Virus genome (UHGV): UHGV-0117027 | Reading direction: 5' to 3' (one strand) | Origin: a virus | Length of the DNA stretch: 17,497 nt | In this document: one piece after another, positions 2,444 through 8,792 of the stretch | Numbering within the stretch: the first letter of the stretch is position 1 | How the letters are laid out: each line of letters begins with the position of its first letter | The notes under the pieces: generated by a model | Seen by the model: only the letters and a program-made list of their open reading frames with translations | The model's database searches: none | Told to the model about the DNA's origin: nothing | Position numbers and translations under genes: made by a program

Positions 2444-2458
2444 ATCCGGGCTTTTTTT
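2434..2458. terminator. hairpin terminator, candidate bidirectional, between convergent genes
   Basis: GCCCGG (2435-2440), loop TAGAT, CCGGGC (2446-2451), flanked by A-run (2431-2434) and T-run (2452-2458); the chaperone stop TAG lies in the loop and the minus-strand gene ends at 2457. Confidence 0.7.
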
Positions 2459-2954
2459 AATAACCTATATAATATTCGTGGTGTTTATCTATTACTTTTT
2501 TATACATGTTAGCGCCTTCTTTGACGCACATGTTTTTGAAGTCAATTCTTACCCTATCTAATGCCATCCCGTCGGCAGCGGCATAAGCGTTATTGTCGTG
2601 ATCTTTTATCGCCCGTTCAGCAGCCATGATGGCAAGTCCAGCGACAAAGTTTTTAAATTCATTATCATTTTGTTTGTTTTCAGCAGCAGCCATCACGAAA
2701 GCGAAACTTTCACCGTGCGCTTTTATCATTTCAGCGTCACCTTTTTTGGTCCTGCTATCTTTATTTAAGATGAAATACTCCCAGTTAACGCCGTGCCTAC
2801 CAATTGAAAAAAAGTTTACATTTGCCATTGTATATGCTTTTTCGTAGGCTGGATAAATAGCGTCGCACATCTTGCTGACTTCATTACTTGCATTTGCATT
2901 GACCGCGAATATTGCCATGACCGCAGCTACCGCGACTTTTACTAGCCGTTTCAT
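2457..2954 (-). CDS. secreted protein of unknown function (N-terminal signal peptide)
   Basis: 165-aa ORF opposite to the tail genes; N-terminus MKRLVKVAVAAVMAIFAVNANA-SNE is a classic Sec signal peptide with an AxA site; SD GAGG 7 nt upstream of the ATG. Confidence 0.7.
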   Translation of the reverse strand: MKRLVKVAVAAVMAIFAVNANASNEVSKMCDAIYPAYEKAYTMANVNFFSIGRHGVNWEYFILNKDSRTKKGDAEMIKAHGESFAFVMAAAENKQNDNEFKNFVAGLAIMAAERAIKDHDNNAYAAADGMALDRVRIDFKNMCVKEGANMYKKVIDKHHEYYIGY

Positions 2955-3212: not shown

Positions 3213-5426
3213 ATGACAACAAATGTGGGCACGATTGAGTATACCGTTGACGCAAAAACCGAGCGGTTACTAGTAGCTCAACGCAAGGCGGAGGACTCGT
3301 TTGATAAAATCGAGCAAGGCGCTAAACGCACCGATAAATCAGTGCAGTCACTTAATACCACGATAAGTAATTTATCCAAAGCCGTGAACATTGGAATGAT
3401 GGTCATGGCTGCAAAAAAATTCCTGGAGATCGCAGATAACGTAAATCTGCTACGCGCCAGGGTAACACGACTATCAAGCGGCATTGCTGACGCAAAATCG
3501 AATTTTGACGGGATTGTTCAGATATCGAATCGCACAGGGATGAGTGTTCAAAGCACCGGGAAGCTGTGGGAAAGCCTAAAAGCCAGCCTACAGGATACCA
3601 GCGCGACCAGTCAGCAGGTATTGCAGCTTACCGACTCGCTTCAGAAAATAGGCCGTATCGGAGGTAGCTCATCAGATGAAATGTCAAACGCACTTCGCCA
3701 GTTAGGGCAGTCCCTGACGGGTGGCATTGTTCGCGCGGAAGAATACAACTCTGTGCTTGAAAACATGCCCGAAGTATGGCGACGCGTCGCCAAACAAATG
3801 GGGATCTCGATGGGTGAACTTCGCGCAAGAATGCTTGATGGTAAGCTCACCGCCGAGGATGTTACCAATTCAATTCTTGCTGGCGCAGAAGACATAGAGA
3901 AGGACTTCGCAAAACTGCCAACAACAACAGATCAGGCATTTAACGAGCTAAAAAACAACTTCGATCTGTTAATTGACACGCTAAACCAAACGCTTGGAGT
4001 GTCTGATTTGGTAGTTACTGGTATACAGGCTGTTTCTAGTGAAGTCCAGATGTTATCTGGTTGGTTTAAGTCCCTGGCGAGCGATAGCACGTCATTAACT
4101 GATAAATTGTGGCTATTGGCTGGGGCGTTTGAGGGTATAGTGCCTGGGCTTAGTTTGTTCCGCGCTCAAGCGAAACAGGTTGGATGGTTTGATGGCGGAG
4201 AACAGCCATTTGTTTCCACTCTCCCCACGGGGCAAGCTGGTGTAAGTCGCATAACGTTTAAGCCTCAACCTGGTGGTAAGGGTAAGAAAGGCAAAGGTAA
4301 AAAAACCGGCAAATCAGAAGCCGAGCGCCTTGCGGAACAGGGTGTGCGCATTTCAGATGCATATAACGAAGATTCGGCAGCAATGCGCAAAGCGCTTGAA
4401 TCACAAAAAGCCATAGATGCAGCCTTTAAAGCCGGGAAAATAACCATGCTTGAATACAAAGGCGCAATGAAGGGAATTGGTGATGAATTGCGCGAAACTC
4501 TGGCGGAAATTAACGACCCGATCAATAGGCTGCAAGAAAAATGGGACAAAATGATTCCATCACTGGATCAGAAGCGCGGTGAACTAGACCCAATACAGCA
4601 GGCGCAAAATGAATGGACCGTTCGTAAGCAAATGCTGGAAGATCTTGGCGCTACTGAGCAATATATGAGGGAACAAGAAAGAGCGCACGCACAGGAAATG
4701 CTCACCCTTGAGTGGGAGCGATATAAAGCACAGTCAATGAGCTACAAACTGTTGGGCGATACCGTTGATGCAATGGGCGGATCTGCAACAAATGCGCTTG
4801 TGGGCCTGGTTAACGGCACTCAAAGCTGGCAGCAGGCGCTGGCTAACATTGGCAATACAATCCTTTCCTCCGTTATCGGTACGCTTGTTCAAATGGGGGC
4901 TGAATGGGTCAAGCAGCAATTGATAGGCGAGGCCGCCAGCGCAGCCGCAACAGCTAAAGCATTGGCAGAGGCTACCGCTTTGGGATCTGCGTGGGCTACT
5001 CCTGCATACCTGGCAAACGTAGCCACGATGGGCGGCGCGGCGACCGTGGGGGGTACGAGTCTTGCCACTGGTGTGGCTGGAGCAAAAGCGCTTGGCCTGG
5101 CTGGCGCTCGTTATAACGGCGGTGCGGTGGCTGCGGGCAGCCTCTATAAGGTCGGCGAACACGGTAAACCGGAGATCTTTCAGGCGAGCAATGGGAGTCA
5201 GTACATGATCCCGGGTGACAACGGCAGGGTAATACCAAATCGCGACATTGGTGGTGCTGGTGGTGGTAGCGTTAGCATAAACGCGCCGATTAGTGTTTAC
5301 CCACAAAATGGATGGAGCGATGAGGATGCCAAAAAGCTGCAACAGGACATGGAAAGGATCTGCATGGGCCTGATGCACCGCGAATCATCCAGACCAGGCG
5401 GAATGCTGCAACCTCGCAGGAAATAA
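3213..5426 (+). CDS. tail tape measure protein
   Basis: 737-aa ORF after the chaperone; helical N-terminal two-thirds, a Lys/Gly-rich stretch (KPQPGGKGKKGKGKKTGK) and a Gly/Ala-rich C-terminal region; SD GGAG 9 nt upstream of the ATG. Confidence 0.9.
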   Translation: MTTNVGTIEYTVDAKTERLLVAQRKAEDSFDKIEQGAKRTDKSVQSLNTTISNLSKAVNIGMMVMAAKKFLEIADNVNLLRARVTRLSSGIADAKSNFDGIVQISNRTGMSVQSTGKLWESLKASLQDTSATSQQVLQLTDSLQKIGRIGGSSSDEMSNALRQLGQSLTGGIVRAEEYNSVLENMPEVWRRVAKQMGISMGELRARMLDGKLTAEDVTNSILAGAEDIEKDFAKLPTTTDQAFNELKNNFDLLIDTLNQTLGVSDLVVTGIQAVSSEVQMLSGWFKSLASDSTSLTDKLWLLAGAFEGIVPGLSLFRAQAKQVGWFDGGEQPFVSTLPTGQAGVSRITFKPQPGGKGKKGKGKKTGKSEAERLAEQGVRISDAYNEDSAAMRKALESQKAIDAAFKAGKITMLEYKGAMKGIGDELRETLAEINDPINRLQEKWDKMIPSLDQKRGELDPIQQAQNEWTVRKQMLEDLGATEQYMREQERAHAQEMLTLEWERYKAQSMSYKLLGDTVDAMGGSATNALVGLVNGTQSWQQALANIGNTILSSVIGTLVQMGAEWVKQQLIGEAASAAATAKALAEATALGSAWATPAYLANVATMGGAATVGGTSLATGVAGAKALGLAGARYNGGAVAAGSLYKVGEHGKPEIFQASNGSQYMIPGDNGRVIPNRDIGGAGGGSVSINAPISVYPQNGWSDEDAKKLQQDMERICMGLMHRESSRPGGMLQPRRK

Positions 5427-5432
5427 ACAAAA

Positions 5433-5460
5433 CCCCGGCACAATGCCGGGGCTATTTTAT
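5433..5460. terminator. hairpin terminator, candidate bidirectional, between convergent genes
   Basis: CCCCGGC (5433-5439), loop ACAAT, GCCGGGG (5445-5451), then TATTTTAT; on the other strand the hairpin is followed by TTTTGTTTATTT. The minus-strand 59-aa gene ends at 5457. Confidence 0.7.
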
Positions 5461-5636
5461 TCAATTTCATCATTTTTAAATTCGCCGTTTGCATAAAGCT
5501 GCAATGCTCTTATCAGTTCGTCAGCTTGCTTTTTGTCTATTACAATCATCTCGCAGTCGCTAACGATCCATAATCTTCCGTCATCTTCAATACTAAGATC
5601 AATCCTTCTGCATTCTTCAGTATCATGAATAATCAT
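5457..5636 (-). CDS. small protein (59 aa), unknown function
   Basis: ATG at 5636 with GAAGG SD 7 nt upstream; hand-translated as MIIHDTEECRRIDLSIEDDGRLWIVSDCEMIVIDKKQADELIRALQLYANGEFKNDEIE; last gene of a four-gene leftward operon. Confidence 0.5.
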   Translation of the reverse strand: MIIHDTEECRRIDLSIEDDGRLWIVSDCEMIVIDKKQADELIRALQLYANGEFKNDEIE

Positions 5637-5674
5637 TATAAACCTTCATCATGTTATTGATTTCGTGAATAAAT

Positions 5675-5845
5675 TTACTCAAATCTTGTATATCCTCTCT
5701 CAATTTTCCCTCCGTGTACACTTCTGGCAAATACCGCGTCAGTACACCTAAAAAATGGGCATGTATATGTATCCCCTTTACTATCCATATATTTTAGCAC
5801 CCATGCCATGCGTTTTACGTTGCTTTTATTTGCCGGATTTTTCAT
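5675..5845 (-). CDS. small protein (56 aa), unknown function
   Basis: Internal ATG at 5845 with GGAGG SD (8-nt spacer), preferred over the TTG start of the 64-aa track ORF; MKNPANKSNVKRMAWVLKYMDSKGDTYTCPFFRC... Confidence 0.45.
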   Translation of the reverse strand: MKNPANKSNVKRMAWVLKYMDSKGDTYTCPFFRCTDAVFARSVHGGKIERGYTRFE

Positions 5846-5876
5846 TTTGTTTTCCTCCGCAACATTCAAATCCGTG

Positions 5877-6131
5877 TCACTTGTGAGCGCCTTTCACCCC
5901 ACAGTGCCTGTTATATTCCAGGTGGTCAATAATTAACCACATCTTTAAATCTTCGCTGAATAACCGCCAATCGGGGTTGATGTCAAATTTATAACCGTAG
6001 CCATCGCGTAATTTTTTGGGGTTGGCCTCTTTTTTAAGAAAAGCATCAAGCAATTGCTTTCCTTTCTTGATGATCCGGTCCTGTGCGTTTTTCTGTGCTT
6101 TCAGGTTTTTACCAATCGCCACCAATTTCAT
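5877..6131 (-). CDS. small basic protein (84 aa); RelE/YafQ-like toxin fold is a weak by-eye candidate
   Basis: ATG at 6131 (track ORF starts at an upstream GTG). Lys-rich N-terminal half, then NPDWRLF strand, MWLIID strand and C-terminal EYNRH; recalled YafQ/RelE-type toxins share the PDW...strand...basic/His C-terminus pattern. Not verified by alignment. Confidence 0.5.
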   Translation of the reverse strand: MKLVAIGKNLKAQKNAQDRIIKKGKQLLDAFLKKEANPKKLRDGYGYKFDINPDWRLFSEDLKMWLIIDHLEYNRHCGVKGAHK

Positions 6132-6149
6132 AACACACCCCACAATCCA

Positions 6150-6305
6150 TTAGTTGACCACTTTCAGGAAGAAATCACGGTACTCGTTTTCCTTCGCATT
6201 CATCATGAATTGACCGTATTTGAATGCGTCATCAAAGCCTTTGACTATCGCCACTTCCACCTGTTCGAATGCGTTGTTCAGCATTACCACTACATAACGC
6301 TTCAT
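6150..6305 (-). CDS. small protein (51 aa), first gene of cassette
   Basis: ATG at 6305 preceded by AAAGGAGG SD (5-nt spacer); hand-translated as MKRYVVVMLNNAFEQVEVAIVKGFDDAFKYGQFMMNAKENEYRDFFLKVVN; stop 18 nt before the 84-aa gene start. Confidence 0.5.
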   Translation of the reverse strand: MKRYVVVMLNNAFEQVEVAIVKGFDDAFKYGQFMMNAKENEYRDFFLKVVN

Positions 6306-6346
6306 ATTGGCCTCCTTTGTCGGTACTGCTTTTTCTTCTTGCTTAC

Positions 6347-6375
6347 TATATACATCTTGTCACGCCTTATGTGAA
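6347..6375 (-). promoter_or_regulatory. candidate sigma70-type promoter for the four-gene leftward cassette
   Basis: Minus strand reads TTCACA (+ coords 6370-6375), 17-bp spacer, TATATA (+ coords 6347-6352), about 40 nt upstream of the first cassette start codon. Confidence 0.35.
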
Positions 6376-6390
6376 GCCATTTTGTAAACT
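6376..6390. promoter_or_regulatory. conserved intergenic element GCCATTTTGTAAACT
   Basis: 14 of 15 identical to GCCATTTTGTTAACT at 7972-7986; both sit at the head of a leftward cassette and contain the ACAAAATGG core on the minus strand. Confidence 0.45.
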
Positions 6391-6474
6391 GGTTATAATT
6401 CTTGTGATGAATTTCTCATTTTTCGCGTAGAAGCGCGTAAAGATGTATGCAATATGTAACTTATAGGGGGAATC

Positions 6475-6828
6475 ATGCCAGAAGTTTTCAGATGGACGCC
6501 GCAAAGAAGCTACAGCGTGACCAGGGAACCAAATGTGTCTGTCGTTAAACTTGGTGATGGTTATGAACAGCGCCAGGCGAAAGGGATTAACACGTTGCTT
6601 GATAGTTATACCCTGGTTTTCAAAGGCAGTAGCGCGGGATGTGGTGATGGTGGAAACGTGGCGATCCAGGCCGAAGCATTTTTGAGGGCGCGCGGCGCTG
6701 TCGAGGCGTTTTACTGGACTCCATCGATCGACGGGGTGCAAAGGCTTTTCGTTTGCCGTAGCTGGAGCATGACCAAAGACGGGCCTGTGTACACGCTAAA
6801 CGCAACGTTTGAACAAGTTGTTGGCTAA
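6475..6828 (+). CDS. M: minor tail protein M homologue (distal tail protein)
   Basis: 117 aa; N-terminal FRW...V..V.LGDGYEQR and C-terminal ...FEQVV match the lambda gpM pattern as recalled (FRW...FGDGYSQR...EFEQVV); GGGGGA SD upstream. Confidence 0.9.
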   Translation: MPEVFRWTPQRSYSVTREPNVSVVKLGDGYEQRQAKGINTLLDSYTLVFKGSSAGCGDGGNVAIQAEAFLRARGAVEAFYWTPSIDGVQRLFVCRSWSMTKDGPVYTLNATFEQVVG

Positions 6829-6840
6829 TGGGGGGTTGTT

Positions 6841-6981
6841 ATGTACGGGACTTGTGTGGTTGACAAAACTTACGCTTTTACATTGTTTGACGACTATGAG
6901 ATCAACGACCTTACTGTAAAAGCTGACAACGGCGATATATGGTATCTTCACGACGTTGGCGATGGGTACGTGGGGGTGTAG
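6841..6981 (+). CDS. small ORF (46 aa) downstream of M, unknown
   Basis: ATG 6841 preceded by GGGGGG SD (5-nt spacer), 13 nt after the M stop; MYGTCVVDKTYAFTLFDDYEINDLTVKADNGDIWYLHDVGDGYVGV; below the ORF-track length cutoff. Confidence 0.3.
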   Translation: MYGTCVVDKTYAFTLFDDYEINDLTVKADNGDIWYLHDVGDGYVGV

Positions 6982-7033
6982 ATCCCGGGAAGGGAAGGGG
7001 GTTTTATTTTTGGTTGATGGCGTATAAACACGA

Positions 7034-7061
7034 CCCCGCGCGAAGCGGGGTTATTATTATT
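7034..7061. terminator. GC hairpin with T-tract (candidate terminator, possibly bidirectional)
   Basis: CCCCGC (7034-7039), loop GCGAA, GCGGGG (7045-7050), then TTATTATTATT; the minus-strand cassette ends at 7057 inside the T-tract. Confidence 0.5.
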
Positions 7062-7173
7062 CCATTTCCATTAATGCTATATTTTCCGCTATCGTTTTCC
7101 AGTCCAGATCTACAGCATGAACGCCAAATACTATCAATCCCATTATTATTAGCGCCAAAACTTCTATTTTCAT
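7057..7173 (-). CDS. small hydrophobic peptide (38 aa), predicted single-pass membrane peptide
   Basis: ATG at 7173 with AGGTG SD (7-nt spacer); hand-translated as MKIEVLALIIMGLIVFGVHAVDLDWKTIAENIALMEME; the hydrophobic stretch LALIIMGLIVFGV would span a membrane. Confidence 0.4.
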   Translation of the reverse strand: MKIEVLALIIMGLIVFGVHAVDLDWKTIAENIALMEME

Positions 7174-7183
7174 AATCTGTCAC

Positions 7184-7432
7184 CTATAAGTTATCACGCA
7201 GATAATTAACGCCCTTATCAGTGACGAATGAATGGTTAACCTGGTTTTCATCCGTCATGATGATAAATAACTTTTCCTGTAGGTATTTAGCTTTCGGGTA
7301 CAGCGTTAAACAGACCTGGTACAGTATCCCGCGCTCAATCAGCAAATCAATAAATTCGTGTTCATGATAACCAACGAGGCGGGCGGCCTGTTTCAGCGTG
7401 TACACATAATCGCCGTGATTGCGCCGCCCCAT
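7184..7432 (-). CDS. small protein (82 aa) with helix-turn-helix-like segment, putative DNA-binding
   Basis: Start at 7432 overlaps an AGGGGG SD placed on the upstream gene stop; segment TLKQAARLVGYHEHEFIDLLIERGIL resembles an HTH. Family not identified. Confidence 0.55.
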   Translation of the reverse strand: MGRRNHGDYVYTLKQAARLVGYHEHEFIDLLIERGILYQVCLTLYPKAKYLQEKLFIIMTDENQVNHSFVTDKGVNYLRDNL

Positions 7433-7441
7433 GTATCCCCC

Positions 7442-7789
7442 TTATTTATCGAATGCTGCAAGATTATCCATGCAGAAGTCTTTCGCAGCTTTTTCGTATT
7501 CGCGTTTTGCTTCTGGATCGTCAGCCGGGAAACCTTTTGCGTGTATTTCACCAGGGCAAGACTGATCCATAGAGTCTGCAAAATTAACATTGAAGTTAAC
7601 ATTAATATCTTTCGGGTTCATATCTTCCACCTCATCAACTATCTGTACCGGATTAGCAGCATATTTCACTGGATGGCCTAAACTACATTCAAGAATCCTG
7701 CCTTCTTCCAGGGCTACTTCTTCGCTATCAAATAATCCGAAACACTCCTTGCTACCACTTAACCACACATCAAGACTGTATTTTTTCAT
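7442..7789 (-). CDS. acidic protein (115 aa), unknown function
   Basis: Internal ATG at 7789 (MKKYSLDVWLSGSKE...) with GAGG SD, preferred over the longer 149-aa track ORF whose 5' part overlaps the upstream gene in another frame. Confidence 0.55.
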   Translation of the reverse strand: MKKYSLDVWLSGSKECFGLFDSEEVALEEGRILECSLGHPVKYAANPVQIVDEVEDMNPKDINVNFNVNFADSMDQSCPGEIHAKGFPADDPEAKREYEKAAKDFCMDNLAAFDK

Positions 7790-7958
7790 TTTTGTTAGCC
7801 TCATATTTGACAGGTTCGATCTGGTATCCCAAAAGGCGGTCATCCTCAGCAAGTAAAAGCGCGTCAACCAATGCTTCCCCCTCGTCGTCATACAGGGCGA
7901 TAACCTTTTCCCTACCGTCTGTCATGAATACCGTCAACTTCCATGGCTTTTCAGTCAT
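7770..7958 (-). CDS. small acidic protein (62 aa; alternative in-frame start at 7976 gives 68 aa)
   Basis: ATG 7958 with GGAGG SD (6-nt spacer); the in-frame ATG at 7976 also has an AAGGGGAAG SD and lies inside the conserved ACAAAATGG element. Overlaps the next gene by 20 nt. Confidence 0.5.
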   Translation of the reverse strand: MTEKPWKLTVFMTDGREKVIALYDDEGEALVDALLLAEDDRLLGYQIEPVKYEANKNEKIQS

Positions 7959-7971
7959 AACGCACCTCCGC

Positions 7972-7986
7972 GCCATTTTGTTAACT
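7972..7986. promoter_or_regulatory. conserved intergenic element GCCATTTTGTTAACT
   Basis: Near-identical to 6376-6390; a related CCATTTTGG lies at 8035-8043 and an oppositely oriented ATCACAAAATG at 8064-8074. Confidence 0.45.
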
Positions 7987-8063
7987 TCCCCTTCGTTTGA
8001 GTAAAATATACATATTGTAAAAACCATGAACAATCCATTTTGGTGTGATTTAGCGTGACGCAT

Positions 8064-8074
8064 ATCACAAAATG
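8064..8074 (+). promoter_or_regulatory. ATCACAAAATG element 24 nt upstream of the L start
   Basis: Same core as ATCACAAAAGTGG (3190-3202, 23 nt before the tape-measure ATG) and ATCACAAAATGG (15373-15384, before the tail-fibre gene). Confidence 0.45.
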
Positions 8075-8087
8075 ACAAGGTGAGAAA

Positions 8088-8792
8088 ATGCGCAATATTC
8101 CGAGAGAGATGATTATTGATTCCGTCGATGCCGGAGTTGGCGCGGTCATTGACTTATTTGAACTGGACCTTACTCCCCTGGGAGGCGAGGTTATCCGCTT
8201 CCATTCCGGCGCGAACGGCTATTACGGCCAGGTTATCTGGAAGGGAGTAGCTTACAACAGCTACCCGATCGAGACGACGGGCTTCGAAATGAAAAACGAG
8301 GGCGTTTATTCGCGGCCTCAAATGGTTGTAGCCAATATCGGCGGGCTAATCACAGGGATGAATAACGATTTCAACGACCTGCGAGGAATGAAGGTTACGC
8401 GCCGCCAGGTGGAGGTTAAATACCTGGACGCCGTTAACTTCCCTAACGGCAATCCAGACGCAGATCCATCTATTGAGGCTGTATCTTTTTACGTCGTTGA
8501 AGCAATGAGCGAAGAAACAGCGGATCAGGTGCAATATGAATTGTCAACGCCAATTGATGCAGATAAAGCCGTTATCCCAGGGCGCACCATCCTTGCTGAC
8601 GTTTGTCAGTGGCAATACAGAGGCGACGGGTGCATGTATTCTGGCGGCCCGGTCGCAACTGATAAAGATACACCAACAAGTGACCCAACGTTAGACAAAT
8701 GCAGCCACCGCCTTAGCGGTTGCCGTTTGCGTTTTCCGCGTCCGGCAGCACTGCCGATCTCCTGTTTTCCTGGTTCCAGCAAGGTAGGTTAA
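8088..8792 (+). CDS. L: minor tail protein L homologue
   Basis: 234 aa; segments ...RRQVEVKYLDAVNFPNGNPDADP..., ...PGRTILADVCQWQYRGDGCMYSGGPVATD...DKCS..LSGC closely parallel lambda gpL as recalled, including four C-terminal cysteines (lambda L binds an Fe-S cluster). Confidence 0.9.
   Translation: MRNIPREMIIDSVDAGVGAVIDLFELDLTPLGGEVIRFHSGANGYYGQVIWKGVAYNSYPIETTGFEMKNEGVYSRPQMVVANIGGLITGMNNDFNDLRGMKVTRRQVEVKYLDAVNFPNGNPDADPSIEAVSFYVVEAMSEETADQVQYELSTPIDADKAVIPGRTILADVCQWQYRGDGCMYSGGPVATDKDTPTSDPTLDKCSHRLSGCRLRFPRPAALPISCFPGSSKVG

Follow-up and report, generated by a model that had tools for sequence, protein, structure and literature searches.

The tail genes of an mEp021-like (mEp_immI) Escherichia coli prophage, represented by the 17,497-nucleotide virus genome UHGV-0117027 (the window), are interrupted by an antisense cassette of small genes whose constant core consists of p84, an 84-residue Pfam ParE_like protein with a predicted RelE/ParE-type fold, and p51, a 51-residue ORFan encoded directly upstream. 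We tentatively favour the explanation that the two form a toxin-antitoxin-like core, in which p51 would neutralise a RelE-type p84, and that this core is carried as a moron. The toxin-like identity of p84 is not new, as its family is already listed in Pfam and bears a product name in RefSeq; less ordinary are the fixation of the core pair in every locus found, its antisense orientation and the ORFan nature of the putative antitoxin. An earlier note on this DNA had described four tightly packed minus-strand genes that include a RelE/YafQ-like toxin candidate. All four are indeed present and intact, with low ratios of non-synonymous to synonymous substitution (dN/dS): p51 (6150-6305), p84 (5877-6131), p56 (5675-5845) and p59 (5457-5636), separated in this order by 18, 31 and 38 nucleotides.

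Bases 5300-6500 of the window are 100% identical to chromosomal DNA of E. coli strain M15, and the same stretch is 88-95% identical in the six phages mEp515, mEp010, mEp044, mEp013, mEp554 and mEp021, which belong to the Nus-dependent, non-lambdoid mEp_immI group (PMC11893012). The cassette goes unmentioned in the paper on the mEp_immI genomes (PMC11893012). The tail genes around it run on the plus strand and encode a DUF6246 protein, the tape-measure protein, a lambda-M-type Phage_min_tail protein and tail protein L. The earlier placement of the cassette between tape measure and M proved correct: the Prokaryotic Genome Annotation Pipeline (PGAP) annotates the tape-measure gene at 3213-5426 (plus strand) in the 100%-identical M15 locus, and the gene for the lambda gpM-type minor tail protein at 6475-6828 (plus strand) matches Pfam Phage_min_tail with an E-value of 2e-29.

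A predicted RelE/ParE fold in p84

The basic protein p84 matches the Pfam family PF24732 ParE_like ('ParE-like toxin domain') with an E-value of 5.9e-12 and 45.9 bits, against a gathering cut-off of 24.4, and the match covers profile positions 2-67 of 67. All intact p84 homologues bear the precomputed PF24732 label, and those in other E. coli prophages are named 'ParE family toxin-like protein' in RefSeq; p84 also matches PHROG 1525, to which no function is assigned. The protein carries the family motif WRL...W.I..H.EYN, and the short motifs that the earlier note had picked from it (WRLF, WLIID and EYN) correspond to the conserved strands and the C-terminal helix of the family. Members of the mEp type have an extra N-terminal beta-hairpin (residues 1-16), which is missing from the 73-residue Sortsnevirus members.

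A phmmer search with p84 over 1.8 billion representatives returned only six matches. The wider family was reached via tblastn matches in Sortsnevirus and in jumbo Klebsiella phages, followed by two profile searches, and an alignment of 38 sequences was obtained. A first AlphaFold model, calculated from 20 near-identical sequences, had a predicted local distance difference test score (pLDDT) of 70 and gave meaningless Foldseek matches; it was replaced after the alignment had been widened. The second model, calculated from the 38-sequence alignment, reached a pLDDT of 89.9 and a predicted template modelling score (pTM) of 0.79. It displays an N-terminal beta-hairpin (residues 3-13), a helix (18-32), three strands (47-50, 55-59 and 65-69) and a C-terminal helix (70-77). 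A structure search with this model retrieved near-exclusively toxins of the RelE superfamily, all close structural neighbours being toxins, and the modelled p84 fits solved toxins of the RelE/ParE class more closely than it fits other folds. The best Foldseek match was YoeB (probability 0.90, template modelling score 0.49), with E-values that are non-significant. Thus, the structure prediction and Foldseek search that had been named as a check on the 84-residue protein found a RelE/ParE-like fold, and the likeness to RelE, YafQ and YoeB suspected from its letters is borne out by the above-threshold Pfam match, the RefSeq names and the toxins that the model retrieves. A RelE/ParE fold for p84 is well supported as a prediction.

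Catalytic residues of RelE-type interferases are, for example, Glu46, Arg65 and His83 in YoeB, and Arg61, Arg81 and Tyr87 in RelE. Among the 38 diverse family members, which share about 25% identity, Arg56 and His70 of p84 are invariant, and Tyr73 and Asn74 nearly so. In the model, Arg56 is located on the central strand and His70 directly past the last strand. The residues of p84 were matched to the known catalytic residues only through an hhalign alignment that is non-significant. In structural scores, the RNase-type toxins HigB1, YafQ, RelE and YoeB rank slightly above ParE structures. Because of these slightly better scores, the Arg/His pair and a net charge of about +9, p84 appears to lean towards the RelE/YoeB/YafQ-type RNases rather than towards the ParE-type gyrase poisons.

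Two allele classes of p84 that are 62% identical were distinguished: class A, to which the copy in the window belongs, and class B, present in nine loci (L003, L009, L026, L028, L030, L032, L034, L037 and L043), in which Tyr73 is replaced by Phe. Between the classes, synonymous divergence is saturated in codons 17-84 (proportion of synonymous differences, pS, 0.93) and ordinary in codons 1-16. A recombination breakpoint lies near codon 16, with the N-terminal beta-hairpin and p51 kept constant and the remainder of p84 replaced.

A fixed p51-p84 core and exchangeable cargo

Gene content was compared in 48 loci, composed of 44 IMG/VR loci found via p51, the window, one E. coli genome locus and two phage records. 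With p51 as the main bait, the counts of fixed linkage and of decay given here refer to p51-found loci. In all 48, p51 lies directly upstream of p84 at a distance of 18-24 nucleotides and in the same orientation, and the content downstream varies; the two are adjacent, co-oriented and co-inherited in every case, as is expected of type II toxin-antitoxin genes. Only p51 and p84 are constant, with p56 being found in 23 and p59 in 21 of the 48 loci. Downstream of p84 there is either nothing or a combination of a 30-residue open reading frame (ORF), a 49-residue ORF, an HNH endonuclease, p56 and p59. The basic 56-residue p56 is 51% identical to part of a 75-residue protein in the unrelated phage contigs L004 and L005, and the acidic 59-residue p59 occurs as two sequence types and matches phrog_13627 (E-value 8e-8). 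Hence, the 'four-gene operon' of the earlier note consists of four real genes, but its unity was overstated: p56 and p59 are exchangeable cargo, independent of the core. Since each of them is absent from about half of the loci, p59, despite its acidic character, and p56 were ruled out as the antitoxin.

Pooled Nei-Gojobori dN/dS values are 0.05 for p51, 0.09 for p84, 0.11 for p56 and 0.18 for p59. As these values are low despite a synonymous divergence of 0.3-0.65, and as all copies present are intact (p51 48/48, p84 48/48, p56 23/23, p59 21/21), all four ORFs are, judged by their substitution patterns, real protein-coding genes under strong purifying selection, including p56, which RefSeq PGAP left uncalled. 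An overlapping 35-residue ORF with a TTG start (5623-5730, minus strand), which ends inside the start of p59, was judged spurious; the frame of p56 is the one under purifying selection.

Within the cassette, p51 is the most constrained gene, and its ribosome-binding site is much stronger than that of p84. The Shine-Dalgarno sequences, as read from the DNA, are strong for p51 (AGGAGG) and p56 (GGAGGA), moderate for p59 (GAAGG) and weak and G-rich for p84 (GGGGTG), so that the earlier statement of a good site before each gene holds for p51 and p56, and in moderation for p59, but was slightly overstated with regard to p84. Decay is one-sided as well: p84 is frameshifted in four loci by three distinct lesions (L092, L093/L094 and L095), and the p51 frame is intact in each of them. 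A broken p51 beside an intact p84 was encountered in none of about 50 loci, a small sample largely gathered through p51.

In all frameshifted p84 copies (L092, L093, L094 and L095), the lesion falls within or close to the two A6 runs, TTAAAAAAGAGG and CCCCAAAAAATTA, at codons 33-40 (window positions ~6000-6045). This suggests that the runs may be a slippage hot spot, or a source of sequencing error in some assemblies. HNH endonuclease genes stand at varied points of the insertion hotspot, some on the downstream side of p84, ahead of the cargo genes, and others in the gap separating p51 from the M-type gene (L003 2811-3317, L026; L029, L043, L093, L094). In mEp515 (L003), p84 and the endonuclease gene overlap at the 3' end of p84.

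Moron features of the cassette in the tail operon

The GC content of the cassette is 37-42%, compared with 47-60% for the tail genes. On its downstream side lies a bidirectional intrinsic terminator (5431-5453, both strands), which was detected by a scan of the two strands and corresponds to the annotated terminator T15 of phage mEp515. The hairpin, read from 5453 to 5431, has a 10-bp stem with seven GC pairs followed by a T-rich tail, confirming the downstream terminator of the earlier note, and was scored as a terminator both ways, for the cassette on the minus strand and for the tape-measure gene on the plus strand. In having its own terminator and a deviant GC content, the cassette fits the definition of a moron (PMC3594210). 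The first moron, HK97 gene 15, likewise adjoins the tape-measure gene, with a promoter and a terminator of its own and a deviant GC content (PMC3594210). A module inside a tail operon is therefore not the unusual arrangement it had been taken for, as the classic morons sit in tail operons, HK97 gp15 being an example (PMC3594210).

Like the tail-operon morons HK97 gp15, lambda lom and Tab of a Pseudomonas prophage, the mEp_immI cassette is a GC-poor unit with its own terminator, located between tail genes beside the tape-measure gene. Unlike these, it is antisense, comprises several genes, and carries a toxin-fold protein in place of a membrane exclusion protein. Moreover, in contrast to the presence or absence that is typical of morons, the p51-p84 core is fixed in all loci found through p51.

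Evidence for and against a toxin-antitoxin-like core

Starting from the reality of the genes, the fold and family membership of p84, the linkage to p51, the terminator and the low GC content, we infer use of the upstream promoter, toxicity of p84, an RNA target and neutralisation by p51. The cassette would be a horizontally acquired accessory unit of the moron type, whose transcript probably starts in the intergenic region 6306-6474, next to the gene for the M-type tail protein, and runs to the terminator that follows the tape-measure gene. p84 would act as an RNA-cleaving toxin of the RelE/YoeB/YafQ type, to which Arg56, His70 and the positive charge fit better than to a ParE-type gyrase poison, and p51 would be its dedicated neutraliser, made in excess from the stronger ribosome-binding site. 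In the lysogen, the pair would then function like a type II toxin-antitoxin module in prophage retention or phage exclusion. As a candidate antitoxin, p51 is plausible.

Several observations weigh against this explanation. The p84 sequence did not match PF05016, PF06769 or PF15738 at E<=1, Protein Data Bank (PDB) sequence searches with p84 as a single sequence and as a profile yielded nothing, and hhalign comparisons with single RelE, YoeB, YafQ and ParE sequences were non-significant. In contrast to the RelE/YoeB/YafQ/HigB mRNA interferases, to which p84 lacks detectable sequence homology, no antitoxin of the RelB, YefM, DinJ or HigA type adjoins it. Likewise, p51 resembles no antitoxin or DNA-binding family: it has no match in Pfam, NCBIfam, PADLOC or the PDB, and its sole family match is the function-less phrog_29810. 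The NCBIfam search was without a match for any of the four cassette proteins, and PDB sequence searches with p51 and p59 gave nothing usable. No p51 homologue was found outside the mEp_immI-type phage group. In addition, p51 remains ~92-98% identical among loci in which codons 17-84 of p84 have been swapped for the 62%-identical allele, and its divergence between the p84 classes equals that within one class (pS 0.44; proportion of non-synonymous differences, pN, 0.03). Since the core of p84 has been exchanged without a change in p51, the two proteins do not co-vary.

The candidate sigma-70 promoter upstream of p51 (6347-6375, minus strand) adds to these reservations. It is composed of TTCACA (6375-6370), a 17-nucleotide spacer and TATATA (6352-6347). 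TTCACA is present in 40 of 42 distinct upstream sequences, and the candidate -10 block is conserved throughout the alignment as TATATA or TATACA; the final T occurs in none of them, and a consensus promoter scan did not call the site. Eight promoter-like sites were found in the region versus 6.7 expected from shuffled sequence, that is, no excess. The TTCACA-17-TATATA pattern that had been put forward is thus present and conserved, but it makes a weak candidate promoter.

ParE_like genes in other settings

Beyond the mEp_immI group, ParE_like members occur in lytic phages (Sortsnevirus and jumbo Klebsiella phages), where they are part of long same-direction operons, in islands resembling integrative and conjugative elements (ICE-like islands) and on plasmids. 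The genes upstream encode two unrelated 115-125-residue proteins in Sortsnevirus, a 73-residue zinc-ribbon protein in phages of 40-46 kb, a Lys-rich 69-residue protein in contigs sharing a gene with rV5-like phages, and a DUF2857 protein in islands of E. coli and on plasmids of enterobacteria. As these neighbours are unrelated, the family has no conserved antitoxin partner, which is a further argument against p51 in this role. DUF2857 is the BisC subunit of the transfer-competence activator of ICEclc (PMC7423338), and this neighbour has a regulatory rather than an antitoxin role. In these settings, ParE_like is often translationally coupled to the upstream gene, but just as often to the downstream one, so the coupling is uninformative on the antitoxin question. 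Literature searches on PF24732 found no experimental work on the family.

T4 RegB is a phage RNase with a RelE/YoeB-like fold that operates without an antitoxin, and it offers a model for the action of ParE_like proteins in lytic phages. By analogy, p84 would be a stand-alone RelE-fold effector for host or early-mRNA shut-off or for counter-defence, which needs no antitoxin and to which p51 is merely linked. We consider this explanation possible, though on balance unlikely. It agrees with the occurrence of ParE_like genes in virulent-type phages, in strings of small early genes and with no common neighbour, as well as with their position behind the BisC-type regulator gene in islands and plasmids; both the indifference of p51 to the p84 allele swap and its limitation to one phage group point in the same direction. 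However, p51 and p84 are never apart in the 48 mEp_immI loci, although the nearby cargo is freely shuffled, and p51 is intact where p84 has decayed, the reverse never being seen. The moron features furthermore suggest expression from the repressed prophage, in which an unneutralised toxin would be costly. RegB, which is about twice as long as p84, is also absent from the fold matches of p84.

In E. coli, the most frequent ParE_like member is P0071, listed in 3872 index blocks; its gene invariably comes after the DUF2857 gene, with which it overlaps by 4 nucleotides. The operon order is DnaB, DUF2786, DUF2857, ParE_like, DUF7446 and Ead/Ea22, and this context was seen in L013-L020, in L066-L070 and on the plasmids NZ_CP056253 and NZ_CP061046.

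The metagenomic contigs L004 and L005 share one gene with rV5/phi92-like large phages. Among their small genes are homologues of the 30-residue ORF, p56 and p84 (L004, 175-539 and 2838-3104; L005, 1436-1824 and 4001-4267), and p51 is not among them. Because homologues of p56 and of the 30-residue ORF share these contigs with a ParE_like gene, the comparison shows that small genes of the cassette apparently travel between very different phages. A resemblance of the 75-residue p56 homologue (L004, 312-539) to the framework 2, complementarity-determining region 2 and framework 3 segments (FR2-CDR2-FR3) of antibody heavy-chain variable domains (VH) and nanobodies, MAWIVRNSDNKGDIWVEAF...SRSVRGG versus MSWVRQAPGKGLEWVS...ADSVKG, had a best E-value of 0.002 and is probably due to chance.

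Further alternatives and implications

It is doubtful that p84 is a catalytically inert binder of RelE/ParE fold, acting for example in regulation, on ribosomes or nucleic acids, or against a host defence protein, in a cassette of independent small anti-defence or exclusion genes. Such a role would suit the lack of a canonical catalytic constellation that could be mapped with confidence, the Phe at position 73 of class B alleles and a cargo that comes and goes as in accessory-gene hotspots. PADLOC, too, produced a single sub-significant match among the four cassette proteins, that of p84 to PDC-M02A (E-value 0.0099). Yet, the invariance of Arg56 and His70 at ~25% identity suggests a conserved active or binding site, and the close structural neighbours of p84 are toxins throughout. 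A true ParE-type gyrase poison, with p51 as a small PaaA2-like antitoxin devoid of a DNA-binding domain, is improbable, given that HigB1, YafQ, RelE and YoeB outscore the ParE structures, including those of ParDE and of PaaA2-ParE2 from an E. coli O157 prophage, that PF05016 ParE_toxin is not matched, that p51 is unlike ParD and PaaA2, and that the conserved Arg/His pair would be more typical of the RNase branch.

The toxin-antitoxin-like core that we favour can be extended to a bolder version, which we regard as highly improbable: p51-p84 would be a new toxin-antitoxin pair, with p51 representing a previously unseen 51-residue antitoxin fold, and the antisense position would allow the pair to be triggered by transcription of the tail operon. 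The cassette would be transcribed in the quiet lysogen, where p51 would restrain the RelE-like RNase. On induction or superinfection by a related phage, antiterminated late transcription would run head-on through the cassette, p51 synthesis would collapse, and freed p84 would shut off translation in the host or in the competitor.

ParE_like genes are widespread in enterobacterial phages, both temperate and virulent, and also occur in ICE-like islands and on plasmids. For tests of the family, the mEp_immI cassette offers the cleanest setting: its two-gene core is fixed in the six mEp phages named above, which are cultivable phages of K-12, and the two p84 allele classes and the frameshifted copies provide natural controls. 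Should p84 prove to be an active RNase that p51 neutralises, a new antitoxin fold and a function would be gained for a prevalent group of gut coliphages; if p84 acts alone, the idea, modelled on RegB, of phage RNases with a RelE fold and no antitoxin would be extended. Either outcome would be a useful but incremental step, since RelE/ParE toxins in prophages and morons in tail operons are both familiar.

Intergenic region and neighbouring inserts

The divergent intergenic region of 169 bp between p51 and the M-type tail gene (6306-6474) is more conserved than p84 itself, as seen in the alignment of 42 distinct sequences. It contains two copies of TACGCG at a distance of 10 bp, a plus-strand TATAAT without mismatch (~6393-6398) and a 27-nucleotide imperfect inverted repeat (6339-6365 and 6433-6459), with AAGATGTAT on both strands. 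These elements may be shared regulatory sites. An Rfam scan of positions 5200-8200 identified no RNA family.

A second GC-poor antisense cassette (7004-8149, minus strand) separates the M-type tail gene from tail gene L. It encodes an 82-residue protein with a KilAC antirepressor domain (PF03374, E-value 1e-6) and contains two further ORFs of 149 and 64 residues without a family match, and it has its own bidirectional terminator-like hairpin at 7032-7052. A third antisense ORF of 165 residues (2457-2954, minus strand; GC content 38-40%), without a Pfam match, lies between the DUF6246 and tape-measure genes. Backward-facing inserts therefore break up the tail module at three points.

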